Under the pieces are notes generated by a model. That model did not search any database, was not told the origin of the DNA, and saw only the letters and a program-made list of their open reading frames with translations. A program made the translations under genes and the position numbers. 64,000 nucleotides of DNA from a virus (taxonomy: Duplodnaviria; Caudoviricetes). Where the stretch lies: the IMG/VR virus record IMGVR_UViG_3300023218_000202, positions 3,833 to 67,832 of that record; one strand, given 5' to 3'. Shown here piece after piece: positions 17,049 to 64,000 of this stretch. The first letter of the stretch is position 1. Each line of letters begins with the position of its first letter.

Positions 17049-17525
17049 ATGGATGTGAAAGACGACGCGATCCGCCAGCACGGCGCGGCCAAGCAACTGG
17101 CCGAGGAGCACTTCATCGGCGAGGGCAAGCCCTACTACTTCCTGCGGGACTGCAACATCCTGTGGGTGGAGCAGGACGTGCGCGTGCCCAAGGGCTACAG
17201 CGTGGGCAAGGTCAACGGCCTCTGGCGCTGGCAGACGGGCTACGACATCGTGATCCGTATCCGCACAGATTGGTGGGAGTCCTTCGAGACCCACGAGGAG
17301 CGGCTGGCCTACCTTGACCACATCCTGGCGCACATCGAGCTGACCGACGAGGACAGCTACGTCATCAAGGAGCCGGACCTGCAGATGTTCTCCGCCGTGG
17401 CCGCGCGCCACCAGGAGGCGTACCTGGAGCGGATGCAGGAGCACACCGAGGGCATCGCGCAGATGCAGTTCGACTTCGAGCCCGAGGTTCGCAGCGGCGA
17501 GCTGGCCGCGACGAACAACGTGTGA
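17049..17525 (+). CDS. Phage metallopeptidase-like domain protein, degenerate HExxH
   Basis: DIVIRI...W...RLAYLDHILAHI...PDLQMFSAVAARH; HILAH replaces HExxH. Confidence 0.65.
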   Translation: MDVKDDAIRQHGAAKQLAEEHFIGEGKPYYFLRDCNILWVEQDVRVPKGYSVGKVNGLWRWQTGYDIVIRIRTDWWESFETHEERLAYLDHILAHIELTDEDSYVIKEPDLQMFSAVAARHQEAYLERMQEHTEGIAQMQFDFEPEVRSGELAATNNV

Positions 17526-17740
17526 TGGTGCTCTGCAAGCTGACCGGGCTCGAGTGCGAGCTAGTCGACGAGCCGACCGACAAGGTCATGCGGAACCCGG
17601 CGAAGAACCTAGCGGTGCGGGGTTTCCGCGCGACCGGAATTCAGTTCTGCGGGGAGTGCGGGTGCTCGACCGAGGCCAAGCGCCGGCTCGGGTTCCCCTG
17701 CCCGCTTGGAAAGGGTGCATCCAACCATGAGCCAGAATGA
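17522..17740 (+). CDS. Small Cys-rich protein
   Basis: CKLTGLEC, CGECGC and CPL motifs. Confidence 0.55.
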   Translation: MMVLCKLTGLECELVDEPTDKVMRNPAKNLAVRGFRATGIQFCGECGCSTEAKRRLGFPCPLGKGASNHEPE

Positions 17741-18305
17741 ACGCACGCGGTTGTTCGTGAGTACGAAGTTCAGTGGATTCAATTTGGGAGCGAAGCCGTT
17801 GAGCTTCGCGGCGGCGTCTGGCACGAAGTGGTTCTACGCCGAGTTCTCTCCCAAGCCCACGCCCGAGCAATGTGATCCGTTTGTGGCTGAGCGGATCTAC
17901 CCCGCCTTGCGCTACCCGGACAAGAGCGGGAACTTCCCCAGCTCGATCGGCTACCACGGCACGGTGGGCTACGTGCAGGGGTTTTTCCAAAAGTGGCTGC
18001 GCCAGTTCCGGGGCCAGATCGAGTTCTGGGGCGACCAGGAGCAGGCGGGCTGGAATCTGGTAATCAAGCTACTTAACCCCACCGAGCAGGGGACGCCGTC
18101 CGTGTTCCCGATCTTCTTCGAGCTGCCCACGGCGATGTTGTGCGCCGGATACGCACCGCAGGTTTCCCTCCCGTTCTTCGCTTACGGCAATGTCAAACCC
18201 GAAGAGGACCTACTCGCCAACGCGTTGGACCACGCGCGCACCCTGGAGGTCGCTTTCGGCAAGTTGAAGATCGACGAGCGGGAGATGGCGGGGGCGTCGG
18301 CGTGA
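17727..18305 (+). CDS. Hypothetical protein
   Basis: Continuous ORF with phage-like codon usage; coupled to rusA-like gene. Confidence 0.65.
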   Translation: MSQNERTRLFVSTKFSGFNLGAKPLSFAAASGTKWFYAEFSPKPTPEQCDPFVAERIYPALRYPDKSGNFPSSIGYHGTVGYVQGFFQKWLRQFRGQIEFWGDQEQAGWNLVIKLLNPTEQGTPSVFPIFFELPTAMLCAGYAPQVSLPFFAYGNVKPEEDLLANALDHARTLEVAFGKLKIDEREMAGASA

Positions 18306-18697
18306 GCCAGGCCGTCTCCGCCCCTGTGCTGCAGCTCACGCTGGAACGGTTCGTGCCCAAGAGCCTCAACGAGCAGCTCCGCATGAACCGCTACCGGCTC
18401 CACCGCTACAAGAAGATGTGGGAGAAAGCGATCTGGGGCAAGGTCAATGAGGCGGGCGGTCCGGGCTGGGAACGCCCGCCGCTCAAGGGGGCGCGGGTGC
18501 AGATGACCATCTACTTTCCGCACTTCCGCCGGCGGGACGCAGACAACTATGCCGGCTTCAAGGCCATCATGGACGGTCTGCAGGCGGCCGGGGTGCTTGC
18601 AGATGACAACGCCACCGACGTGCGTTGGGAAACGCCGATCCTGATGGTCGACCCCCCGGCGCCACGTACGCTGATTGAAGTCTACGAGTCGGATTAG
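18302..18697 (+). CDS. rusA: RusA-like Holliday junction resolvase
   Basis: RRRDADNY..FKAIMDGLQAAGVLADDN motif. Confidence 0.8.
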   Translation: MSQAVSAPVLQLTLERFVPKSLNEQLRMNRYRLHRYKKMWEKAIWGKVNEAGGPGWERPPLKGARVQMTIYFPHFRRRDADNYAGFKAIMDGLQAAGVLADDNATDVRWETPILMVDPPAPRTLIEVYESD

Positions 18698-18967: not shown

Positions 18968-20515
18968 ATGTCCGACTCTGACCTGGAACAGGCGCTCCAA
19001 ACCGGCGACGTGCTGATCGCCAAGGACCTGGTCAAGCACCGCGACGAGCTCATGCGCTGCTACCGAGATCCGTGGTATTTCGCCACGCGCTACTGCTGGA
19101 CCAAGAAGAAGGAGGCCGAAAAGCCGGGCGAGGAGACCGAAGCCGGCCCCGACCTGGTGGCGATCTACCCTGAATGGGACTACCTCAAGCCCGTGATGGA
19201 AGAGATCTACCACGCGCAAGGGTCTCACCTGTGGGAGAAGAGCCGCCAGATGCTGCTCACCTGGACCTTCTGCATCGTGGAGCTGCACAAGCTCATGTTC
19301 CTCGAGGGGTACGAGGCGCTCAACGGCTCGCGCAAGGAACAGCTCGTCGACGACGGCGGGGATGCATCCACCACCTACAGCACCCACGGCCGCATCCGCT
19401 TCATTTGGAAACGCCTCCCCGAGTGGATGCGCTCGCCGCTGCACTTTGCCTACCTCAAGATCATCAACCAGGAACCGGGCATGGACGGGCTTATCATCGG
19501 CGAATCCGCCAACGCTGACATCGGGCGCTCGGGTTCGTTCGTGGACATCCTGCTGGACGAGGCCGCGGCCATTCCCAACGGCGAGAAGGCCCACACCGCG
19601 CTTTCAGGTTGCACCTTCATCGCGCGCCACTACGTCTCGACCCACAAGGTCGAGGAGAACGTGTTCGGCCGGCTGGCCGAGGACGAGAACTCGGGTTTCA
19701 AGGTCCACGGGATTCACTGGAGTCTTCGTCCGGACCGGGACATGCGCTGGTACAAGGAGAAGTCCAAGGGGATGTTGCCCCACCAGGTTGCGGCCGAGCT
19801 GGACATGGTACGGCGTGCCGGGAGCGAGCAGAGCTTCATCTACGGGGACTGCTACGACCGCGAGTCCCACATCGTGGGTGACGATGACCTGCCGGCCGAG
19901 GACGAGATTTTGCACATCGTGGGAGGCCAGGACTGGGGCTTCTCGATCCAGGGCGCCTTCCTGAAGGGTCTCGTCGACTCGAGCGGCAACCTCTGGGTGG
20001 TCGGGGAAACCGCGGCAGCGCGTATGCAGGTCGAGCAACTCGACGAGGGCGGCAATCCGACCTCCGACTGTTGGTGCGGTGTGGCGCAATCTTCTGGCTC
20101 GGAACTGGTGGTGGCCGGGCACGAGAACCCGGAAGACATCGCCAAGTTCCAGCAGCACGGGGTCAACACCCGCTCCCGCAAGTGGTCGGTTGAGCACGGG
20201 ATCCGGGAGGTAACCAAGCTGCTGCGTGGCGCCGAGGGCAAGCGCCTCTACATCCACGAGTCCTGCGTGACGTTGTCCAAGGACCTGCCCAACTACCGCT
20301 GGCGCACGGACGCGCGCGGCGAGGTAATCCCCGGCCAGCCGCTCAAGAAGCACGACCACACGCCCGACGCGCTACGCCACCTGGTCGAGGCGGCGTCGAT
20401 GTTCGAGGACGCCTGGGTCGCGGACCTGGGCGAGGCGCCCAAGGCCAACCGGCGGCGTCAGTCCCGCCGGCCGCTTGGGAAGCGCAAACGGAAACGGTAT
20501 AGCCCTCATCGGTAG
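18968..20515 (+). CDS. terL: Terminase large subunit
   Basis: EKSRQ ATPase motif, ILLDEAA Walker B, GQDWG RNase H motif, C-terminal HDHTPDALRH. Confidence 0.9.
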   Translation: MSDSDLEQALQTGDVLIAKDLVKHRDELMRCYRDPWYFATRYCWTKKKEAEKPGEETEAGPDLVAIYPEWDYLKPVMEEIYHAQGSHLWEKSRQMLLTWTFCIVELHKLMFLEGYEALNGSRKEQLVDDGGDASTTYSTHGRIRFIWKRLPEWMRSPLHFAYLKIINQEPGMDGLIIGESANADIGRSGSFVDILLDEAAAIPNGEKAHTALSGCTFIARHYVSTHKVEENVFGRLAEDENSGFKVHGIHWSLRPDRDMRWYKEKSKGMLPHQVAAELDMVRRAGSEQSFIYGDCYDRESHIVGDDDLPAEDEILHIVGGQDWGFSIQGAFLKGLVDSSGNLWVVGETAAARMQVEQLDEGGNPTSDCWCGVAQSSGSELVVAGHENPEDIAKFQQHGVNTRSRKWSVEHGIREVTKLLRGAEGKRLYIHESCVTLSKDLPNYRWRTDARGEVIPGQPLKKHDHTPDALRHLVEAASMFEDAWVADLGEAPKANRRRQSRRPLGKRKRKRYSPHR

Positions 20516-20534: not shown

Positions 20535-22550
20535 ATGTCAAAGAAACCTCCGAGCCTGATTCGTTCCGTCATCAGATCGCTCGTCCCCTCCCCGGTGGGC
20601 GCCGCCCGCGAGGCGCTCGAGCTGCGCTACAACAACTGGCGGGCGCGCCAGGCGCTCAAGGACATCGACCTCAACGAGCTCAACCGGGGCTGGGTCACGC
20701 CCGGCCAGGAGGACATCGAGCTGGACGAGTGGACGCGCTCGGAGCTCGAGGACACGCTCATCACGCTCTACAACAAGCACGACACCGTCCGGAACATCAT
20801 CGAGAACTTCGTGCTGTTCGTGGTGGGGCGCAGGATCGAGGTGCAGTTCAAATCCAAGGAGCTGCAGCAGCGCTACGAGATCCTGGACGAGTCGGTCAAC
20901 TTCAACGCCGTCTACGAAAACGGCGTGCGCATGTCCCTGATGCTGGGCAACTGGTTCTACCTGATGCTGCCCTTCGGCGCGCCGATGCGCTTCGGTCTGC
21001 TCGACCTGGACGCGCGCAAGGTGGCCGAGATCAATACCGCGCCCAACAACCCCGGCATCGTGACCCACTACACGCTCAAGGGAGCTTCGGAGGGCCACAA
21101 GAAGCTGGACTCGGCCGACGTGATCCACTTCCACAACGTCAAGTTCGGGCGGCAGTTGTTCGCGCGGCCTCTGTGCGAGCCCGTGCTGGATCGGATCGCG
21201 CAGCTCGACAACCTGATTGAGGACCAGCTAGAGGCGCGCCGCATCAAGTCGATGCTCCACTGGGTGCGCTATCGCAAGGGACCGCCCCCAGCCACGCCGC
21301 TGGAGGACATCCCCGACTCGGCCATCATCGAGGCCCACGATGAGCAGGAGCGCTACGAATCGCTGACCCAGGACGTGGATTCATCCGAGGCCTGGCGGGA
21401 TGTGGACGGCCTGTTGAGCAGGATCGCGGCGGGTCTTAATGTGCCGATCGAGTTCGTGAAGATGGACATCTCAGGTTCCCCTTCGGGCGAGATGCACTTG
21501 GAGAGCATCCCGGTCAAGCGCTTCCAGAGCCTGCAGCGGCACTACAACCGGCAGTTCCTGGCGGTGTTGCGCGGGATGCTGAGCCCGAAGCTCCGGGCCG
21601 GCGAGGTCACGATCGTCAACGACCCCGTGGACATCCGCACGCAGTCACGGCGGACGGAGGACATCTCCAAGCTCGTGCAGGAGAACCTCATCAGCCGCAA
21701 GACCGGGCAGGAGGAACTGGGGTACAACCCCGGAAAGGAGAACGAGCGCATCGACGAGGAGTTGCGCGCCAGTGCGGGCGGCGCGGGAGCGGCTGGCCAG
21801 GGCGGTGCTTCGCTGGATGCACTGGCGGGCAACCTGGGCAACGGCGGCGCGGAAGCGCCGGCGGCGGTCCCGGCCGCGGCCGCAGGCCCGGCCGAGGCGG
21901 CTCCGGCCGACGGAGGCGGCCAGGCCGGTGGGGGCGGCGGAGCCATCCCGCAGCTGGCCACCGCAGGACTGTCCGCTCGGGAGAACCTCGAGCAGGAGAA
22001 GCACCTGATCGAGTCGTTCGATGAGAACAACCTCATCGACGATGACCCGGAGTTGCATCGCAAGATCCTGGTGGTCGACGACGGCTTCCAGCATGACCTG
22101 TGCGTGGTCGTGATGGGGCTGAGCGAGGACGATGGGATCGTCGTCCGACGGGAGGAGTATCACAAGCACCTCCCGTTGATCCACCCCGACGGCGAAGGGG
22201 CCGGCCGCGGGCGCGTGTCGTTGGTTCAGGCCATCCGCGAGGAAGAGGGGGCAGAGCTGGTCGTGCTGGACCCGACCGCGCTGGAGCTGGCCGCATTGCT
22301 CAAACACAAAGGTGAGTCGGTCCAGCTGGCCGAGCGTGACGTGGAGGGCGGGTTCGGAATCGTAGAGACCGAGGTCGCGCAGAACCGGCTCAGGGTGCGG
22401 CGGGATCTGAAGCGGCTTGTGGCTGAGTTTACTGAGGGGCGGGCCAAGCAAGGCGAGGAAGGCCCCCGTAAGAAGCCAGCCACGCGCAAGCTGCACGGCT
22501 TGGATTGCGTGCGATACGGGGTCGCCTATTTGAGGAAACAGGGAGCTTGA
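20535..22550 (+). CDS. Portal protein fused to a C-terminal terminase-type RNase H-like domain
   Basis: Position after terL; portal features (GNWFYL, VIHFH...FARPL, ISRKT..EELGY). After an Ala/Gly linker come VVDDG...VLDP...HGLDCVRY motifs. Confidence 0.8.
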   Translation: MSKKPPSLIRSVIRSLVPSPVGAAREALELRYNNWRARQALKDIDLNELNRGWVTPGQEDIELDEWTRSELEDTLITLYNKHDTVRNIIENFVLFVVGRRIEVQFKSKELQQRYEILDESVNFNAVYENGVRMSLMLGNWFYLMLPFGAPMRFGLLDLDARKVAEINTAPNNPGIVTHYTLKGASEGHKKLDSADVIHFHNVKFGRQLFARPLCEPVLDRIAQLDNLIEDQLEARRIKSMLHWVRYRKGPPPATPLEDIPDSAIIEAHDEQERYESLTQDVDSSEAWRDVDGLLSRIAAGLNVPIEFVKMDISGSPSGEMHLESIPVKRFQSLQRHYNRQFLAVLRGMLSPKLRAGEVTIVNDPVDIRTQSRRTEDISKLVQENLISRKTGQEELGYNPGKENERIDEELRASAGGAGAAGQGGASLDALAGNLGNGGAEAPAAVPAAAAGPAEAAPADGGGQAGGGGGAIPQLATAGLSARENLEQEKHLIESFDENNLIDDDPELHRKILVVDDGFQHDLCVVVMGLSEDDGIVVRREEYHKHLPLIHPDGEGAGRGRVSLVQAIREEEGAELVVLDPTALELAALLKHKGESVQLAERDVEGGFGIVETEVAQNRLRVRRDLKRLVAEFTEGRAKQGEEGPRKKPATRKLHGLDCVRYGVAYLRKQGA

Positions 22551-22605
22551 AGGTCATCGCGGGGGCTTACACTTGGGGCGGACCTGGGATACGAAGGGTT
22601 TTAAC

Positions 22606-25600
22606 ATGACGCCACTGGTCAACACGGAAGGCAGGGCTCGAGAAGATCTTTCCGATCGCTCGTTTGCGACCTACATCCGGTTGCTGCCGTTCGACACCAA
22701 CGTCAAGGGGCTGCGAAACGATCACCGAATCCTGCACGCCTGGTGGCGCGAGTTGCTCAAGCGCCAATTGACCAACTTCTCCGGCTGGACAGCCTTCCAG
22801 ATCAAAGAGGCCCACGACCAACTCGTCGAAAGAATCAAAGAACTGGACCCGGATTTCAACCACAACAGCCCGATGGAGCTCCCGGAGTTCCTGGGGGGGC
22901 GCGCCCGCGAGCAGTACAACATCGGACCCTCTCGCTACGAGGGCCTGCTGAGCGACTGGCGCCAACGCTGGGAGGAATTCGCCGACGAGCGAGGCCTGAG
23001 CTCTAAAGAGCTCGAGGAGGGCTGGGAGGAGATCGCCGCCGAGATCGCACGGCTACGAGACGAGGATTCCATCGACGGCGAGCCCATCGGCACGCTTGAC
23101 GAGCTGGTCAACCACCTGCAGGCGTTCGTCGAGCAGGTGGCAGAAGGATTCGACACCGAGCCCGACGATGGCGGGGAGGCCCCCGACGACCCCGACGCCA
23201 GCGCCCCGTCGGGGGATGGCGAGGGGCCTTCCTCCTCCACGCCGGAGGAGCGTCAGGCGGAGGCGCCGACGCAGGCGCTCGACCCCGGAGATGCGTCCGG
23301 TGATGAGGCGGAAGAAGAACCAGAACCCGGAGAGGAGACCAAGACGAACCGTGGCGAAAAGGACGACCGCAAGACCGGTCCCTATGAGATCAGCAAGGAA
23401 GACGTCGGGCGCGTCCTGGAAGAGGGCCGGGCGCGCGCCGAGCGCGAGGCGGTCTTCTCGGGTCTGACGCCGCGCGGCCGCGAGATCTTCAACCGGCTCT
23501 GGCAGGTCAACGTCAACGTGCTGGAGCGCGACTGGGTGGGGCGCATCTTCTTCAACCGCGCCCAGGCGCTACAGGAGATGCGCGACTTCCTGGACGAGCT
23601 CATCGGTTCGATGATCTCGATCCTCGAGATCGAGCGCCAGAAGGCGCAGGAATCCAGGTCCAGAGAGGATATCTTCGTCGGCCCCAAGACGCGCAACGAC
23701 CTCTGGTTGGAGTGGCGCCCGATCGCAATCAAGCGTGGCAACCAGGCGGGACTCACCAACGAGGCGGTAGAGCGGTTGCTGGTCGCCCTCGGGCGCGAAC
23801 TCGATCGCATCCGGGACGAGGATACCATCCAAGGTGTGGCCATCCCCTCGCATGAAGAGCTCAACACCTACCTGGATGGATGGTTGGACGACCAGATCGC
23901 CCAGGAGAAGCGCAGCCCTCAAAGCGTGGGCCAGCGCCGGCCGAGCCGGCCGCTGGAAGAAAACGCGGCCATCAAGACCCAACTGGCCATCTTCGAGGTG
24001 ATGGTTGGGCGCATCCTGGAGGGGCGCGCCGACGAAATCACTACCGCCGGCCTGGACACCGACGAGCTGGTCGGAAAGCATCGCGAGATCTTGGAGGCCA
24101 AGCTGATCCAGCTTTCCGAAGAGCACGGCATCGAGGTCTTACAACGCCGGGCTCGTGAAGCGCTCAACGAGGCGCTGGCGCTCTTCCGGAGCGAGTTGGT
24201 CCGACATCTCGCCCCCGAGCGCGCTGAGGAGTCGGATCCGAAGATCCACTGGCGACACCTACTGGCCTTCCGCCAAAACCCCCGCTTTTTTTTTAGGGCG
24301 CGGGCCGACGTGTTCATCGGCCCAAAAACTGCCGAGTCGCTGTTGGCGACCTGGGCGCCGGTCGTGCGCGAGCGGGCCGAGGCCGAGGGGCTTGGGGTCG
24401 ATGCGGTTGGGATGCTGATCGACCAGCTCCGCCAGGAGATCGAGCGCATCGAGGCGCAGGACACCATCAACGGCGGCCCGATCGAAAGCCACGACGCGCT
24501 CAACGCCTACCTCGATCAGTTCGTGGAAACGATCCTGGCTTCCTTCACCTTCCCCCAGCCGGAGGAGAACCAGGCCAAGATGCTGATTCAAAATCCCGGC
24601 GGGCGCCCGCCGGTGGACACGCTCGCGCGCCAGGACGTGATGTTCCGCGTGCGGCAGGACTTCTTCGACCGGGCGAGCCGCATCGTGGACTCTCTGGTCG
24701 TGCCGCAGGGGGAGCGCGCCGGGCCGGGAATCATCCCGGCGACCGACGAGGCGCTGTCTGACGCGGAGCGCATGAAGCAGCGCTACTGGAGCCGGGTTGA
24801 AGCCAAGGTCGAGGACCTGCCTACCGAGGACCTGGAGCACTTCGAGCGCCAGGTGCGCACCGTAGCCCGTCAGCAGTTGGAGAAGTTCAGGGACGACCTG
24901 ATCCACGTCTACCGCGCGAGAGAGAAACAAGGCCGCGAGGCAGAAGGCAAGGTCAACGAAGAGGCCTGCTACATTCCGTCCCCTGACGAGAAGCAGACGC
25001 TGCAGCGGATCGGTAGCCGGGAGTTCGATAAGGAGAAGCAGTTCTGGAACGACGCCATCAACGACGACTTCATCTTCGAAGCCCAGCTCGGCCGGCCTAT
25101 GACGCCGGTGGTGCGGGTGATGCTGCGTGGTTTGCTGCACCAAGAGCTCGACGATTTGGGCGCTATGCGGTTTGACCCCGTTCTCGTTGTGCAGGAGAGC
25201 CGGCGCTCCAACGACCGCTGCCCGGGGGATTGGTTTGCGTTCAAGAAGTCGTGGCTGGACATCCTGGACAAAACCATCAGCGACCTGGGCAGGGCGATGG
25301 AGGGCCACTTCCGTCGGTTGGTCGAGTTCGACGAGGAGGTCGACTTCCTGGCTGCGCTGTTCGTGGCGGCGCTAACGTTCGAGTTGGTCATCTTCCGCCC
25401 GCTGGGTCGGATCGTTCCGCCGATCGCGCGGGCCATCTGGCGTGCGATCAAGGTCTCGAACCGCACGCTGTTCCTCGCAGCGGGGATCACCAAGGTCGTA
25501 TTCGAGGAGGAGGTCCGCGCCCGCGTCGAGGACAAATACGGCGCGCAAGTCCACTCCAAGGTACGCCAGGAGATGGAGCGTCTCGCCGAGGAGAAGCGCG

Positions 25601-26784
25601 AGCAGGCGCGCCAGCGCGGCAACGAGCTGGACAAGCGGGAGCTGGAAGCCTTCATCAAGGAGAAGGCAGAAGCGCGGGCTGAGGAGCTGCTGGAGCCGCT
25701 GGTCCAACAGGAGGGCGAGGCCTACCGTGAGGAGCTGCTGAACCAATTCCTGGCTGACAAGCCGCCGGAGGAGGGCGAGGGCGCCGCGCCGGAGATGGCC
25801 GTGGCCGGCCTGCGCGCGGCCGAGGACGGCGAGTGCTGGCAGCCCGGGCCGGACGAGCTCGAGACGCTGATTGACAACGCCAAGGGGCGGCTTCGCGAGC
25901 GCGGCGAGCAGCTCAAGGCCGCGATCGGAGAGGACCTACGCGCCCAGGGCGATCTGTCGTTCCAGCAGAACGGCGAGCCGATCCGCTCGGCGGTCCTGGA
26001 AGCCGAGGAAGGCGTCATCCGCGCGCACGAGGGCGCCTTCCGAGAGATGGTCGTCAACGCGCTCGGTGACGCTTGGCTGTGTCTCAACGGGGCCGGTCCG
26101 CCGTGTGACGATGCGACCCTGCGCGAGCGCGGGATCTGCAGCAAGACCGACGTGCTGCGCATCATCCAGCGGCAGCTCGATGCCCAGGTGCAGAATATGG
26201 AAACGGCCATGCGGGAGACGATGGCCGACTTCCGGATCTTCCGCTTCGTGAACTGGGTCAACGCGATCATGCAGTTCGTCATCGGGCGCGGCTTCATGAT
26301 GGTGTTCCGGATCGCCGATAAGGCGGAAGCGATCGGTAAATCCGTCTGGAAGCTGGTCGTGGGGGAAACTGCCGCGGCCTCGATTGCGCTGCGGCTCAGG
26401 AAGCTCAACCCCGACCGCTACAACAAGATCACCACGGATAAGGAAATCCTGGACGAAGCGATCCGCGTGGCCAAGCAGAAGCTGCTTGCTTCCAAGGATC
26501 GAATCAGGCAAGAGATGCGTGACAGCATCCGCTCGCGCTATGAAGAGGCTCGCCGGCGCGGGGAGGACCCCGATGTGGCGCGCATCGAGGCGGACGTGCG
26601 CGCGGAGGCGAACAAGAAGTACGAGGCCGAGCTCTACTCGATCATCGAGCGTGAGGTGCGGGACCGGCTGTTGCGCCGCTTCGAGGATGCGGCTCGTGAC
26701 GAGATGCAGAGAGCCGCAGACCAAGAGATCCGCCAGCAACAGCTCGACGAGGCGAACCCGGGCAGCTCGGCCCCGACGGAGTGA
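22606..26784 (+). CDS. Large acidic helical head-associated protein with internal repeats
   Basis: 1392 aa between portal and MuF; three copies of an IGP...RDED...YL..F domain. Confidence 0.75.
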   Translation: MTPLVNTEGRAREDLSDRSFATYIRLLPFDTNVKGLRNDHRILHAWWRELLKRQLTNFSGWTAFQIKEAHDQLVERIKELDPDFNHNSPMELPEFLGGRAREQYNIGPSRYEGLLSDWRQRWEEFADERGLSSKELEEGWEEIAAEIARLRDEDSIDGEPIGTLDELVNHLQAFVEQVAEGFDTEPDDGGEAPDDPDASAPSGDGEGPSSSTPEERQAEAPTQALDPGDASGDEAEEEPEPGEETKTNRGEKDDRKTGPYEISKEDVGRVLEEGRARAEREAVFSGLTPRGREIFNRLWQVNVNVLERDWVGRIFFNRAQALQEMRDFLDELIGSMISILEIERQKAQESRSREDIFVGPKTRNDLWLEWRPIAIKRGNQAGLTNEAVERLLVALGRELDRIRDEDTIQGVAIPSHEELNTYLDGWLDDQIAQEKRSPQSVGQRRPSRPLEENAAIKTQLAIFEVMVGRILEGRADEITTAGLDTDELVGKHREILEAKLIQLSEEHGIEVLQRRAREALNEALALFRSELVRHLAPERAEESDPKIHWRHLLAFRQNPRFFFRARADVFIGPKTAESLLATWAPVVRERAEAEGLGVDAVGMLIDQLRQEIERIEAQDTINGGPIESHDALNAYLDQFVETILASFTFPQPEENQAKMLIQNPGGRPPVDTLARQDVMFRVRQDFFDRASRIVDSLVVPQGERAGPGIIPATDEALSDAERMKQRYWSRVEAKVEDLPTEDLEHFERQVRTVARQQLEKFRDDLIHVYRAREKQGREAEGKVNEEACYIPSPDEKQTLQRIGSREFDKEKQFWNDAINDDFIFEAQLGRPMTPVVRVMLRGLLHQELDDLGAMRFDPVLVVQESRRSNDRCPGDWFAFKKSWLDILDKTISDLGRAMEGHFRRLVEFDEEVDFLAALFVAALTFELVIFRPLGRIVPPIARAIWRAIKVSNRTLFLAAGITKVVFEEEVRARVEDKYGAQVHSKVRQEMERLAEEKREQARQRGNELDKRELEAFIKEKAEARAEELLEPLVQQEGEAYREELLNQFLADKPPEEGEGAAPEMAVAGLRAAEDGECWQPGPDELETLIDNAKGRLRERGEQLKAAIGEDLRAQGDLSFQQNGEPIRSAVLEAEEGVIRAHEGAFREMVVNALGDAWLCLNGAGPPCDDATLRERGICSKTDVLRIIQRQLDAQVQNMETAMRETMADFRIFRFVNWVNAIMQFVIGRGFMMVFRIADKAEAIGKSVWKLVVGETAAASIALRLRKLNPDRYNKITTDKEILDEAIRVAKQKLLASKDRIRQEMRDSIRSRYEEARRRGEDPDVARIEADVRAEANKKYEAELYSIIEREVRDRLLRRFEDAARDEMQRAADQEIRQQQLDEANPGSSAPTE

Positions 26785-31619: not shown

Positions 31620-31802
31620 ATCTGGTCCCACGCCGCCTTCGGGGTGGGCCGGCACCCATCCGGCCCGCCCTGTCTACTCCCAACGCTCCACAAAAATGCA
31701 GTTCCCAACGGGGATTTTGGGTTCAACGTCACGGCATAAAATGGCCTTAACTGGCTAGAAGTCTGAACCGATCAGGTGAAAGTTCAACCTGGGGGGTTAC
31801 AA

Positions 31803-34421
31803 ATGAGCAAGACTGCAAGGCGAACGATCGCAAGGGAACAGGACGAAGAGCGCCAACTCCAGGCCGGTGACGGCTCGGAAACGGACCAGCCTTTGGAAGA
31901 GGACCTGCTCATCGGGCCGAAGCGCAAGACGAAACTGCAGAACTTCGCCCGGGACATCTTCGAGGCCGCCCGCATCGAGCTGGTGGACCTGGCCAAGCAG
32001 GCTGGCTTCGAGGACGTCGACACCCGTCTGGAAGGCATCTGGCAGGAGGTCTTGGGCGAGCTCGAACGCATGAAGGAGGAGGACGCCAAGCCCGACGGCT
32101 CCCCCTTCGACAGCCTCGACGACGCGCGCGCCCACCTGGAGGCGTTCATTCAGGAGCGCGTGGACGGTTTGCGCGAGGAAATCAAAGCGGCCCAGCAGGA
32201 GAAGGACAAGCAGCAGGGGCCTGCCAATCCTGAGGAAGAGTCCTCCTTCGAGGTGACCGAGGAGATCGTCGAGCAGTTCGTCTCGGCCAGCCGGGCCGCG
32301 TTCGAGACCGTGGCCGACGAGGAGGGCAAGAGCGTTCCGAAGGAGCAGAAGCAGGAATTCATCGAGAAGGCGTTCAACGAGTTTGCCGAGGCGCTGCGTG
32401 ATTTCGTCGGGGCGGAGTTCACCGACAAGTCCGTTTGGGATGACCTGAGCACGGCGCGGCTTAAGGTGGCGCTGGAGAAGCTGCGTGCGCTGTTCTCCTC
32501 TTTGGGGGGCGGTGGGGATGGCGAGGAAAAGACGTTCATCGCCGGCGAATCGATGCTGGGGGTGGATTCGCCCACGTCGGTGGCGCTGGAGAGCGTGCAG
32601 TGCGTGGACGGGAACTGCGAGCTCGGTCCCGACAAGCGCAAGCGCTTCCTGGTGAAGGCGATTGAGCCGGGCATGAGTCTGAACAACTTCCACTACCCGG
32701 CCGAGCTCCTGCGCGCCCGGGCCAACCTGCTCGACGGCGTGCCTGTGCAAGCCTACGGCTTTGGGAAGTACGAGGCGATGTTTACGCACCTGCCCGATGG
32801 CCACGAGGAGCTGCAGCCTAGCGGCTTCCGGCTCAACCGGGTCGGGGTGCTGAAGGAGCCGTTCTGGGTCGGACCGGACAGCCGGGCCCACGAGGACTTG
32901 TACCACGAGTACGGCGAGGGGGCCTACGCGTATCTCGAGGTCGACCGCACCTCGGAAAGCTGGGCGGTGGACTACCTCAACGACGGCGGTGGCCTGAGCA
33001 TCTTCGCCGACATCGACGGGGAGTATCGTTTCGACCCGAAGAGCGATTCGGTCTACGTCTCGGTGGAGGACATCAGCCGTTTCCGCAGCGTCGACTTCGC
33101 CAGCCAGCCGGCCGCGGGCGGTAAGATCCTGCACGCGGTTGAGAGCATCCAGCAGGGGCGGAAGCATGAGATGCAGCGTTTCAAGGGCGAGGTGCTGGCG
33201 CTCGGCGCCGGCGAGATCCTGGATGCGGTCGGCGCGCCCGGCACCGCCAGGGAGCAGTCGGCCCAGCTCGATGCCGGTCACGGCGGAGACCCCGACGAGG
33301 GCGCGATCCTGGCGATCGATTCGTCGATCATCTCATCGCTCCAGGGGTTGATCCGGCGGGAGTTCCAGCTTTCGCCTTCGGACCCCGAGGTCTCGACCGA
33401 GCGCACCAAGCGCATAGCCGAATGCGCCTGGGCGCGGCTGTTCCTGCAGCACGACGACGAGCAGCGCGCCAACGACGAGCTACGCGCGCTAGTGCACGGC
33501 GACTCGATGGAGGGGCCGTTGCTGGAATGCGCAGACGAGGAGATGGCGAAGTTCCGACATGGGGAAACGATTCAGCAGTTGAACCTGGACGAGGTTGTCT
33601 CGATCCGGGGCTGTGGCGAATGTGGACGAGAACTTATCGCAAAGGAGAGCGATATGAGTAAGCAGAAGGCACTCGAAGCGGTGTCGGCCATGCCGCGGAG
33701 TCAGCTCCTGGGGCTGCGCCCCGATCTCAAGCCGTACCTCGATGCGTTGGATCGGGCCCGCGAGGCCGAAGGAGACGGTGAGGGCGGCAGCGGCAATGGC
33801 AACGGCGGCGGCGACTCGAATGCCGGCTCGTCCGGTGACAGCAACGGCGCCAACGGCGACCAGACCAACAGCAACGGCGGCGGCAACGGCGAGGGCGGCG
33901 GCAGCCGCACGCTGGAGACCCCGGCTGGCGAGCTGGACGAGAAGACCTTGCGCAAGTCGTTCGCGCAGCTGCTGGGATTCGAGGAGAACGACCCGCTCTT
34001 GTCCACGATCGTCAACAACCTGTTCGAAATCGTGGAAAACGAGGGCGAGGAAGCGGCCGACCCGCAGGCGCGCGAGGCCGTGCTCAACCTGGCCAACCGG
34101 CTGCGCGACCTGGAGAGCGACAAGGCTCGCACCGAGCGCATGCAGGTACTCGAGGACGCGCTGGCCGAGGCTCATCTGCCCGAGCCGCTGGAGGCGTACG
34201 TCCGCAAGCGCTACGCCAACAGGCGCTTCGCCACAGAGGACCTGCAGCACGAGGTCCGGGAGATGCAGGCCGTGGCCAACGGCATGCTGGCCGGTGCCAA
34301 CGGCGCGCTGATCGACCCGGCGCTGGGCGAGCTGGTCGCCCGCGAGGACGGCGGCGAGGGCAACCAGCTCCCGCCCGAGTTCGACGAGCTGCGCCGGGAG
34401 TTCCAGGCGTTCGCTTCCTAA
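31803..34421 (+). CDS. Prohead protease / scaffold polyprotein
   Basis: FTH, GLSIFA and SVDFASQPAAGG motifs (HK97/herpes-fold protease); acidic Gly/Asn linker and coiled-coil tail; upstream of capsid genes. Confidence 0.85.
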   Translation: MSKTARRTIAREQDEERQLQAGDGSETDQPLEEDLLIGPKRKTKLQNFARDIFEAARIELVDLAKQAGFEDVDTRLEGIWQEVLGELERMKEEDAKPDGSPFDSLDDARAHLEAFIQERVDGLREEIKAAQQEKDKQQGPANPEEESSFEVTEEIVEQFVSASRAAFETVADEEGKSVPKEQKQEFIEKAFNEFAEALRDFVGAEFTDKSVWDDLSTARLKVALEKLRALFSSLGGGGDGEEKTFIAGESMLGVDSPTSVALESVQCVDGNCELGPDKRKRFLVKAIEPGMSLNNFHYPAELLRARANLLDGVPVQAYGFGKYEAMFTHLPDGHEELQPSGFRLNRVGVLKEPFWVGPDSRAHEDLYHEYGEGAYAYLEVDRTSESWAVDYLNDGGGLSIFADIDGEYRFDPKSDSVYVSVEDISRFRSVDFASQPAAGGKILHAVESIQQGRKHEMQRFKGEVLALGAGEILDAVGAPGTAREQSAQLDAGHGGDPDEGAILAIDSSIISSLQGLIRREFQLSPSDPEVSTERTKRIAECAWARLFLQHDDEQRANDELRALVHGDSMEGPLLECADEEMAKFRHGETIQQLNLDEVVSIRGCGECGRELIAKESDMSKQKALEAVSAMPRSQLLGLRPDLKPYLDALDRAREAEGDGEGGSGNGNGGGDSNAGSSGDSNGANGDQTNSNGGGNGEGGGSRTLETPAGELDEKTLRKSFAQLLGFEENDPLLSTIVNNLFEIVENEGEEAADPQAREAVLNLANRLRDLESDKARTERMQVLEDALAEAHLPEPLEAYVRKRYANRRFATEDLQHEVREMQAVANGMLAGANGALIDPALGELVAREDGGEGNQLPPEFDELRREFQAFAS
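33654..34421 (+). CDS. Nested in-frame scaffold protein (internal start)
   Basis: Strong SD AAAGGAG 6-7 nt before the in-frame ATG 33654. Confidence 0.6.
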   Translation: MSKQKALEAVSAMPRSQLLGLRPDLKPYLDALDRAREAEGDGEGGSGNGNGGGDSNAGSSGDSNGANGDQTNSNGGGNGEGGGSRTLETPAGELDEKTLRKSFAQLLGFEENDPLLSTIVNNLFEIVENEGEEAADPQAREAVLNLANRLRDLESDKARTERMQVLEDALAEAHLPEPLEAYVRKRYANRRFATEDLQHEVREMQAVANGMLAGANGALIDPALGELVAREDGGEGNQLPPEFDELRREFQAFAS

Positions 34422-34874: not shown

Positions 34875-35921
34875 ATGAGCACGAATGCACTGACGCGGGA
34901 GCGGGCGGGGCGTAAGCCCCGGTACGCGCGTGAGGACCTGCGCACCGCCGCCAGGAAGCTGAAGGCGCTCAACGAGCTGGGCGCCTCCAAGATGAACCTG
35001 GGCACGGTGCGCGAGTCGATCGGGCCGGACCTGTTCGACCACGTCATCACCACCGAGATCAACGCGCGCGTCCTTAGGCCGTTCGAGGACCCGAAGTTCG
35101 AGGAGTGGAAGAAGATCGTCACCGAGTCGGACGACCCCGATCTGCAGACACAGATCGGCGTGCGCCTGGGCGGCCTGGGCGACGAGCTCAAGCCCTTCCC
35201 CGGCCGGTTCGGAGAGACCGACATCCCGCCCGAGGAGAAGGTCGACTACTCGGTGAGCATCTACGGCGAAATCTTCGGCCTCGACTTCGAGACCGAGACC
35301 AACGATCGCCTCAAGGCGCTCATGAGCTTCGGCGACGAGCTGGGCCAGAAGTACTCGCGCGGGTTCCTCAAGGAGATCTTCGTCACGATGCTCCAGGACA
35401 ACCCGACGATCTACGACAGCAACAGCCTGTTTGACTCGACCAACCACGACAACGACCTGGACAACGGCGGCGCCGGCAAGGAGCTCAACTACGCCAACCT
35501 GCAGGCGGCGTGGGAGAAGCTCGCCGGCCAGACCAAGCTCGACGGGACACCGGTCCCGACCGAGGGGTTCTACATCGTCTGCGGCACGCCCAACATCATG
35601 GCAGCCGAAGACTATGCGGAGAACCCCAACAACCCGGACAACGCCAACGAGAGCCGCAACACGCTCAAGAAGCGCATCCGCGGCGTCATCTGGCACCGCT
35701 ACCTCGGCAACGACTGGTACATCGTCGCCCCGCGCGAGGAAGTGCCTGGCCTGCACGTGGGCTTCCTGAAGCCCTGGGGCCGCAAGCCGCTGGTCGACAC
35801 GCAGAGCGACCAGAGCGATGAGAGGTTCCGCACCATGAAGAAGAACTGGCGCGTGCGCTACGCCTTCGGTCTGGTGTGGCAGGAATACCGCGGCGTCGTG
35901 CGCGGCAGCCAGAACGTCTAA
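34875..35921 (+). CDS. Major capsid protein (Mu gpT-like)
   Basis: YGEIFGLDFETETNDRLKAL...LQDNPTIYDSNSLF...HDN motifs; strongly biased codons. Confidence 0.88.
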   Translation: MSTNALTRERAGRKPRYAREDLRTAARKLKALNELGASKMNLGTVRESIGPDLFDHVITTEINARVLRPFEDPKFEEWKKIVTESDDPDLQTQIGVRLGGLGDELKPFPGRFGETDIPPEEKVDYSVSIYGEIFGLDFETETNDRLKALMSFGDELGQKYSRGFLKEIFVTMLQDNPTIYDSNSLFDSTNHDNDLDNGGAGKELNYANLQAAWEKLAGQTKLDGTPVPTEGFYIVCGTPNIMAAEDYAENPNNPDNANESRNTLKKRIRGVIWHRYLGNDWYIVAPREEVPGLHVGFLKPWGRKPLVDTQSDQSDERFRTMKKNWRVRYAFGLVWQEYRGVVRGSQNV

Positions 35922-63856: not shown

Positions 63857-63885
63857 GGGGGCGCGCGTGGAATTTGCGCGCCCCC
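63857..63885. other. 10-bp GC hairpin upstream of the leftward cluster
   Basis: gggggcgcgc-9 nt-gcgcgccccc. Confidence 0.55.
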
Positions 63886-64000
63886 ATGGTCGCTTCGTCC
63901 TCTAGGCGCGGGTCGCGGCCTGATGCGCTATCTCGGCAGCGCGGGATTCGGAAAGCGCCGCCCCCCAATACACCACTGCCAGCGCGGCGCTCTCGGGACC

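Follow-up and report, generated by a model that had tools for sequence, protein, structure and literature searches.

We found that a gene of an uncultured phage encodes a portal protein that carries, at the end of a long disordered tether, a further domain that sequence comparisons and structural models identify as the RuvC/RNase H-fold nuclease of a large terminase (TerL). The fusion is genuine and evolutionarily maintained, and it has been kept across a lineage of uncultured phages. The window (the whole stretch of DNA that was analyzed) is 64 kb out of a 67,832-bp IMG/VR virus record. The ends of this record repeat 124 bp; the repeat is compatible with a circular assembly and is uninformative on the physical ends of the genome. 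The fusion gene is a single open frame on the + strand, with an ATG at 20535 and a stop codon at 22548-22550, and encodes 671 aa. It starts 20 bp after the stop codon of terL, which is also on the + strand. An identical 671-aa protein is on record. The features of the two genes are:

18968-20515, + strand: large terminase (TerL), 515 aa, with its own complete nuclease domain at residues ~296-480 (PHROG, our own nuclease HMM, motifs)
20535-22550, + strand: portal-nuclease fusion gene, 671 aa plus stop (single open frame; full-length homologues of 670-737 aa)
20712-21782, + strand: portal body, residues ~60-416, with wing, stem, clip and crown helices (weak Pfam Phage_portal_2 match, AF2, Foldseek)
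21783-22004, + strand: Gly/Ala/Pro-rich tether, residues ~417-490, predicted to be disordered (pLDDT <50 at 420-485; variable in homologues)
22005-22547, + strand: predicted TerL-type RuvC/RNase H-fold nuclease domain, residues ~491-671 (AF2, Foldseek, ESM Atlas, phrog_5653, PDB 5oe8)
inside the nuclease domain, + strand: predicted TerL-specific beta-hairpin, about residues 636-648 (full-length AF2 model)
22077-22079, + strand: codon of D515, predicted first catalytic Asp, on strand 1 in a V-D-D-G motif (alignments; equivalent of G20c D294)
22269-22271, + strand: codon of D579, predicted second catalytic Asp, in a D-P-T-A motif (aligns with D-P-S-A of D6E and other PBSX-type TerLs; position of G20c D347)
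22494-22505, + strand: codons of H654-G-L-D657, predicted third catalytic motif (aligns with H-Q-L-D of D6E; G20c H427/D429)

The motifs that the original prediction had quoted were all found, both in the C-terminus of the portal protein and in TerL (18968-20515). Its boundaries needed adjustment. A low-complexity linker is present as described, at roughly 21783-22004 rather than about 21770-21960. The nuclease domain does occupy 22065-22547, as had been proposed, and it starts about 20 codons earlier, near 22005 (residue 491).

The N-terminal part of the protein is a portal. In an AF2 model of the full-length protein, made with an alignment of 34 homologues, residues ~60-416 have a lambda-type portal fold with pLDDT mostly >85, preceded by a low-confidence helical N-terminus (residues 1-59). 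A Foldseek search with the portal model matched hundreds of portal chains. The best match was the lambda portal (8k38/8xot; E 4e-12), followed by T4, T1, SPP1 and HK97-like portals. The Pfam match to PF05136 (Phage_portal_2) was weak, with a score of 28.1 against a cut-off of 32.9. Because the N-terminal 416 residues are a portal and not an ASCE ATPase, the protein as a whole fails as a TerL and carries only the nuclease module. By analogy with the universal portal fold, we predict that twelve subunits form the ring here.

The tether, about 75 residues long, starts directly after the last crown helix in the AF2 model (H399-416), and residues 420-485 are predicted to be disordered (pLDDT <50). 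It differs in sequence and length in every homologue. We estimate that it is long in every lineage, 65-130 residues, which is enough in principle to span the portal.

Sequence searches identify the C-terminal domain as a TerL nuclease. The last 180 aa matched phrog_5653, annotated 'terminase large subunit', with an E value of 2e-5 over profile positions 27-178, and the nuclease of the phage's own TerL matched the same stretch of this profile (E 2.6e-18). In a phmmer search of PDB sequences, the sole match was the TerL of Geobacillus phage D6E (5oe8; E 0.008), in an alignment that pairs the DP.A and H..D motifs of the two proteins. The nuclease part alone was also used to search 1.84 billion representative proteins, and it matched four TerLs or TerL fragments (E 5e-7 to 9e-4). 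According to Pfam, three of these four proteins combine a Terminase_3/6N ATPase with a Terminase_3C/6C nuclease, and the fourth has the ATPase family only. Pfam returned no match at E<=1 for the domain alone.

Structural models gave the same answer. The isolated domain was modelled by AF2 with a pLDDT of 88.8 and a pTM of 0.86, and a Foldseek search with this model placed the D6E TerL first (E 2.8e-8; TMq 0.76). Ranks 1-36 were almost all TerL nucleases, and further matches included P22, SPP1, G20c, T4 gp17, HK97, Sf6 and the herpesvirus proteins pUL15/UL89. RuvC-type resolvases appeared only as the lowest among the significant matches. The alignment behind the AF2 model of the domain included TerLs; the single-sequence model of the whole protein in the ESM Atlas is an independent check, and its residues 492-671 matched PBSX-family TerLs with TM scores of 0.82-0.85. 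In the full-length AF2 model, a beta-hairpin (strands 636-640 and 643-648) lies just ahead of the H-x-x-D motif, in a region where pLDDT is lower (54-70). An auxiliary beta-hairpin has been described as an element found only in TerLs (PMC5727402). The original prediction had raised the question of whether the domain would model as an RNase H fold, and AF2, the ESM Atlas and Foldseek all returned a TerL nuclease. Identity is 20-22% to D6E over the fold alignment and 28-32% to metagenomic Terminase_3-type TerLs; in the clade of the window, the domain is 27-32% identical to Terminase_3-type TerLs of other phages. The domain is closest to PBSX/Terminase_3C-type TerLs. Based on the sequence matches and the models, we conclude that residues ~491-671 are a predicted TerL nuclease domain.

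The predicted active site appears complete. D515, D579 and D657, together with E540 and H654, are all present, and the three Asp residues align with metal-binding positions of TerLs, which bears out the earlier observation that acidic residues are kept at the catalytic positions. By alignment position, D515 corresponds to D294 of the G20c nuclease, D579 to D347, and H654/D657 to H427/D429. In the G20c nuclease, mutants have shown D294, D347 and D429 to be indispensable; H427 lies close by, and D294 binds metals A and B (PMC5389553). Six residues (D515, G517, E540, H654, D657 and Y661) are invariant in 8/8 fusion proteins, some of which are only ~20% identical, and D515 is invariant in all of the aligned TerLs as well. 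At the position of D579, a distant fusion clade has S-D-E-P-E instead, which still supplies an acidic residue. As far as can be judged from these alignments, the predicted two-metal active site is intact and the domain is apparently active.

The phage's TerL has a nuclease of its own, as had been noticed originally. TerL matched phrog_2 and phrog_5989 in its ATPase part and phrog_5653 at residues 312-475 (E 2.6e-18). Our nuclease HMM covered residues 296-480, and the QDWG, VVGE and H-T-P-D motifs are present. The nuclease domain and its motifs are likewise retained in the other cognate TerLs examined, those of four related fusion loci and of a Candidatus Fraserbacteria metagenome-assembled genome (MAG). 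Since every cognate TerL examined keeps its own nuclease, the portal-borne domain is an extra copy, and relocation of the TerL nuclease to the portal is ruled out.

We found that the extra copy was not made recently from the resident terminase. The portal-borne domain is ~19% identical to the nuclease of its own TerL (12-19% to cognate TerLs in the clade of the window), and a BLASTP comparison of the two was not significant (E 0.82), which rules out a recent internal duplication. The parallel with TerL of the same genome that the original prediction had drawn therefore holds for fold and motifs and does not extend to sequence, in which the domain is nearer to PBSX/Terminase_3-type TerLs. On a free tree of nuclease domains, the portal-borne domains fall in three places (supports 83-87). 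An AU test did not reject a single clade of portal-borne domains (p 0.26).

The same fusion occurs in other phages. Two full-length homologues at ~40% identity, one of 670 aa on a Logan contig and one of 705 aa on an ENA contig, have the same three-part architecture, and a near-identical copy of the 705-aa protein is present in the Candidatus Fraserbacteria MAG (NCBI). Our HMM of the domain also found it at the C-terminus of four far more distant portal homologues of 680-737 aa, with E values of 1e-11 to 1e-17; the HMM had been built without these four. A fifth distant carrier (693 aa) was recognized by alignment. Full-length relatives with the same fusion thus exist at both ~40% and ~20% identity. 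In all, clusters with this architecture number at least eight (identity at or below 50%). They stem from independent projects and assemblers, and the assemblies include Logan, ENA and JGI data and an NCBI MAG. Other searches were negative. Pattern scans of IMG/VR (protein; three-sequence alignment) and tblastn against 50,697 GenBank phage records found no relatives, and no relative is available in culture. Word-indexed protein searches gave nothing beyond the query itself or an irrelevant match; one of these searches was restricted to lengths of 782-2230 aa.

It is extremely improbable that the fusion is an artefact, whether two separate genes, for a portal and a nuclease, joined by misassembly or a frameshift, or a decaying remnant: the record does come from a metagenomic assembly and the junction is GC-rich and of low complexity, possibly hard to assemble, but the at least eight independent clusters, contigs from other assemblies and samples, selection on the domain and the lack of a start site ahead of it all speak against this. 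An independent 43.7-kb Logan contig spans 20000-23000 with 0 differences. In the same study, three further samples yielded short contigs that bridge the junction of tether and nuclease exactly, so that contigs of four runs show it without a difference. Among public runs, none with RNA was listed as holding the sequence. The independent assemblies and contigs reproduce the junction and settle the question of an assembly artefact or frameshift that had accompanied the original prediction. We compared two close Fraserbacteria-associated copies (dS ~0.5) and found that dN/dS is lowest in the portal body (0.009), higher in the nuclease (0.04-0.09) and highest in the tether (0.28). The value of the nuclease indicates that the domain is under strong purifying selection. 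Separate expression of the nuclease from an internal start was considered and rejected. Only one candidate is in frame, a TTG at 22052, which abuts a GGAG without spacing and lies inside the folded N-terminal segment of the domain. Ahead of the domain there is no in-frame start that has a ribosome-binding site.

We found that the fused domain follows the portal. On a tree of portal bodies, the nine carriers lie on one side of one branch, which corresponds to one change of state; the support of this branch is weak. When labels were shuffled on the tree, 0/500 shuffles gave a number as low as that observed. A single change of state indicates that the trait is old and has been inherited with the portal, and not shuffled among close relatives. 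Swapping of the fused domain among relatives was not encountered: 9/9 carriers have the same nuclease, and only a more distant portal has an ADP-ribosyltransferase (ART) domain. That protein, a related lambda-type portal (P0023), has the ART domain at the same C-terminal position.

The topology of portals suggests where the extra nucleases would be. The crown of all solved portals consists of the C-terminal helices and faces the interior of the capsid; the terminase docks on the clip and cuts outside. Because the body matches solved portals and the tether exits from the last crown helix, we infer that the twelve nuclease domains are inside the head. By analogy with these structures, the twelve tethered nucleases would sit in the head lumen at the inner mouth of the DNA channel. 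Since the headful cut is made outside the portal, an interior location speaks against participation in it and favors a role inside the head. Of the roles first suggested for the domain, headful cutting is therefore less likely, given the topology of the portal, than an internal or ejection-related one.

Our results are most consistent with a DNA endonuclease loaded by the portal as internal cargo. We consider this the most likely mechanism and give it about an even chance. The portal would be the vehicle that loads a fixed dose of endonuclease into each capsid, and the DNA would be acted on from inside. There could be two routes. A head-maturation protease might cut the tether, and the enzyme would then leave with the genome as a virion-delivered enzyme. 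Alternatively, the enzyme might remain tethered and act, as the genome is ejected, on the end of the DNA at the portal.

The gene context is compatible with a head that carries internal proteins. Downstream of the fusion gene are a 1403-aa protein without a family match and a MuF-like head protein. An 881-aa head protein (31776-34421) matches the middle of phrog_29592 (positions 197-368), and the major capsid protein matches the C-terminal part of the same profile. By analogy with families in which a protease is fused to the capsid protein, the matching region of the 881-aa protein is probably protease-like, and if it is a protease, cleavage of the tether would be feasible. In distant relatives, giant proteins of 2000-2450 aa with ligase and trypsin-like domains adjoin the head genes. 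There is also precedent for enzymatic cargo at this position. Fusions of portal and MuF proteins with PBECR RNases, 2H phosphoesterases and InPase have been described as probable injected enzymes (Iyer, Burroughs, Anand, de Souza and Aravind 2017; PMC5512222), and MuF polymorphic toxins have been described by Jamet et al. 2017 (PMC5576092).

Several considerations weigh against the cargo reading. An active, non-specific endonuclease beside the packaged DNA must be kept silent, and no inhibitor is evident. No small immunity-like gene was found after the fusion gene in the loci examined. The stable inheritance with the portal, together with the lack of such a gene, fits a core role in the virion or in packaging at least as well as it fits an effector. 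The portal itself could, for example, be a DNA-cutting part of the machine for packaging and ejection, with the twelve tethered TerL-type nucleases making a programmed cut in the genome, or trimming it, at the portal's inner mouth, perhaps at the first- or last-packaged end or by severing the DNA at ejection. Formation of genome ends would then be shared between terminase and portal. We know of no tailed phage in which this is the case, and we regard such a role as rather unlikely.

A role on the packaging side is also unlikely, in our judgment. The portal nuclease would help or back up TerL in cutting the concatemer, at initiation or headful termination, or would trim ends while packaging proceeds, and motor and portal would share the cutting of DNA. 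In favor of this, the domain is of the TerL type in particular, down to the hairpin known only from TerLs, and docking of TerL nuclease domains on the portal has been proposed (PMC5727402). The invariant catalytic residues and the old, stable co-inheritance of the trait with the portal are as expected of core machinery, and a tether of this length could in principle pass through the portal or around it. However, the crown faces the capsid interior in all solved portals, whereas the cut by the terminase is made outside the clip. Twelve tethers in the channel would also obstruct the passage of DNA, and every cognate TerL keeps an apparently complete nuclease.

We think it quite unlikely that the domain has a non-cutting, structural role in which it only grips or senses DNA in the head, as an anchor for the first-packaged end, a valve or plug after the terminase leaves, or a pressure sensor like the P22 barrel. 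The inferred site at the mouth of the channel would suit gripping, as would twelve copies on flexible tethers, and an active nuclease near packaged DNA would be dangerous. The P22 barrel, a C-terminal extension of the portal, serves a structural or sensing role, so such jobs are done by known extensions of this kind. Against this, the acidic residues and the His of the metal site are kept across proteins that are only ~20% identical, beyond the usual needs of DNA binding, and the dN/dS of the nuclease (0.04-0.09) is stricter than a DNA-binding role normally requires. We also considered whether the domain could be a decoy for Avs-type sensors of terminase, and think this improbable, as a late TerL-like fold would be expected to trigger such sensors and not to evade them.

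To our knowledge, the packaging nuclease of every tailed phage and herpesvirus studied is on the terminase and leaves the capsid once packaging ends. Here, an apparently intact copy of the packaging nuclease module is built permanently into the portal, and it has long been kept in phages whose terminase retains its own copy. If active, the domain would be a new virion-carried DNA enzyme, supplied at exactly one dose for each subunit of the portal, or else it would cut a second time as the genome matures, in addition to TerL. Both roles raise the question of how the nuclease is held silent beside packaged DNA. The fusion would also be a natural example of a portal whose C-terminus is used to load folded enzymes into capsids. 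The original prediction had called the architecture unfamiliar. This stands for the TerL-nuclease form, which appears to be undescribed, since full-text literature searches turned up no account of such a fusion. It does not stand for enzyme-tipped portals in general, which have already been published (PMC5512222).

We also compared the protein with known systems. Like the portals of the lambda family (gpB; PDB 8K38, 8XOT; PF05136), it has a portal fold encoded by a gene right after terL and a body that ends in crown helices. It differs in ~255 additional C-terminal residues, comprising the tether and the enzyme, and sequence similarity to that family is very weak. A lineage-specific C-terminal extension is also found in the P22 gp1 portal, whose barrel is a helical coiled-coil tube that runs from the crown into the capsid interior; the barrel has no enzymatic fold and in this differs from the portal of the window.

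The portal-borne domain is predicted to share the RuvC/RNase H-like fold and the TerL-specific beta-hairpin of the D6E TerL (5OE8/5OE9), the G20c nuclease (5M1F) and SPP1 G2P (2WBN). It shares with PBSX/Terminase_3-type TerLs the same three Asp motifs (D..G on strand 1, D-P-S/T-A and H-x-x-D). In contrast to TerLs, it has no clear C-terminal arm past the last helix, and no ASCE ATPase precedes it; the portal body and the long disordered tether are there instead. Because the nuclease sits behind portal body and tether and not behind an ATPase, it cannot couple to ATP-driven translocation as TerL does.

In its arrangement, the protein parallels the enzyme-tipped portal and MuF proteins, in which an enzyme is likewise C-terminal on a head-internal protein of the portal vertex encoded in the virion gene block (PMC5512222, PMC5576092). 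The enzymes of the published fusions include PBECR RNases, 2H phosphoesterases, InPase and ARTs, and they are often swapped between close relatives. In contrast, the portal of the window carries a predicted DNA nuclease of the TerL type, without a MuF module in the polypeptide, and the nuclease has been stably inherited across a deep lineage of portals.

Several genes in the window lie around terL (the large terminase gene) and the portal-nuclease gene:

17049-17525, putative phage metallopeptidase, shortly upstream of terL
17706-18305, RNase H-like protein (phrog_2259), shortly upstream of terL
18140-18697, RusA-like Holliday-junction resolvase, overlapping the RNase H-like gene
22573-26784, 1403-aa protein, the next gene after the portal
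31776-34421, 881-aa head protein, matching the middle part of phrog_29592
34875-35921, major capsid protein, matching the C-terminal part of phrog_29592

We did not identify a small terminase in the window just upstream of terL (17049-18697). The 1403-aa protein is helical and highly charged, had no matches in Pfam or PHROG, and may act inside the head or in ejection. Downstream of related portals, at a distance of one or two genes, we found a 961-aa protein (contig L002) and, in L003 and L004, proteins of 718 and 854 aa. The latter two match phrog_29592 and are therefore counterparts of the 881-aa head protein, not of the 1403-aa protein. The major capsid protein, which shares phrog_29592 with the 881-aa protein, also matches the protease-capsid fusion families phrog_4523 and phrog_133. 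Based on these matches, the 881-aa protein may contain the prohead protease, although it had no direct match to protease families.

The record has a "direct terminal repeat" (window 63877-64000 and genome bases 1-124) with a length of exactly 124 bp. Such a length is consistent with overlap left by the assembler when a genome is circular or permuted, and the repeat should therefore not be taken as evidence of packaging mode.

The TerL gene of a related phage contains an intein:

L002:3894-5711, TerL gene with intein, on the Logan contig that also carries the homologue P0004

The intein is of the Hint type (~133 aa) and interrupts the third nuclease motif at exactly the point that separates its His from the catalytic Asp (boundaries ..N-D-H-A / C-F-P..S-N / C-D-A-L-R-Y). 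Because the motif is split, this TerL nuclease would be active only after splicing.

Further loci lie on bacterial contigs, from a Candidatus Fraserbacteria MAG and an ENA 947-kb contig:

L003:8001-10118, locus on a bacterial contig
L004:7968-10085, locus on a bacterial contig
L006:9785-11302, locus on a bacterial contig

The portal-nuclease gene has no terL alongside on these bacterial contigs, and the genes upstream of it are on the opposite strand and are not alike in the two contigs. A second contig of the MAG has a terL (55% identity to that of the window) surrounded by non-structural genes. Despite the missing terL neighbour, dN/dS of the portal body was 0.009. This arrangement may reflect either a prophage whose modules are scattered or an element that has become domesticated.

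A few genes downstream from the portal gene, distant phages that carry the fusion have genes for giant proteins:

L010:14325-end, giant-protein gene
L012:15421-end, giant-protein gene
L013:14729-end, giant-protein gene

These proteins (~2000-2450 aa), with matches to DNA_ligase_A_M and Trypsin_2, are candidates for virion-packaged polyvalent proteins.

A different enzyme is found on a lambda-family portal homologue, P0023 (783 aa), which has a C-terminal NAD:arginine ADP-ribosyltransferase domain (PF01129, residues 685-780) exactly where the window's portal protein has its nuclease domain.
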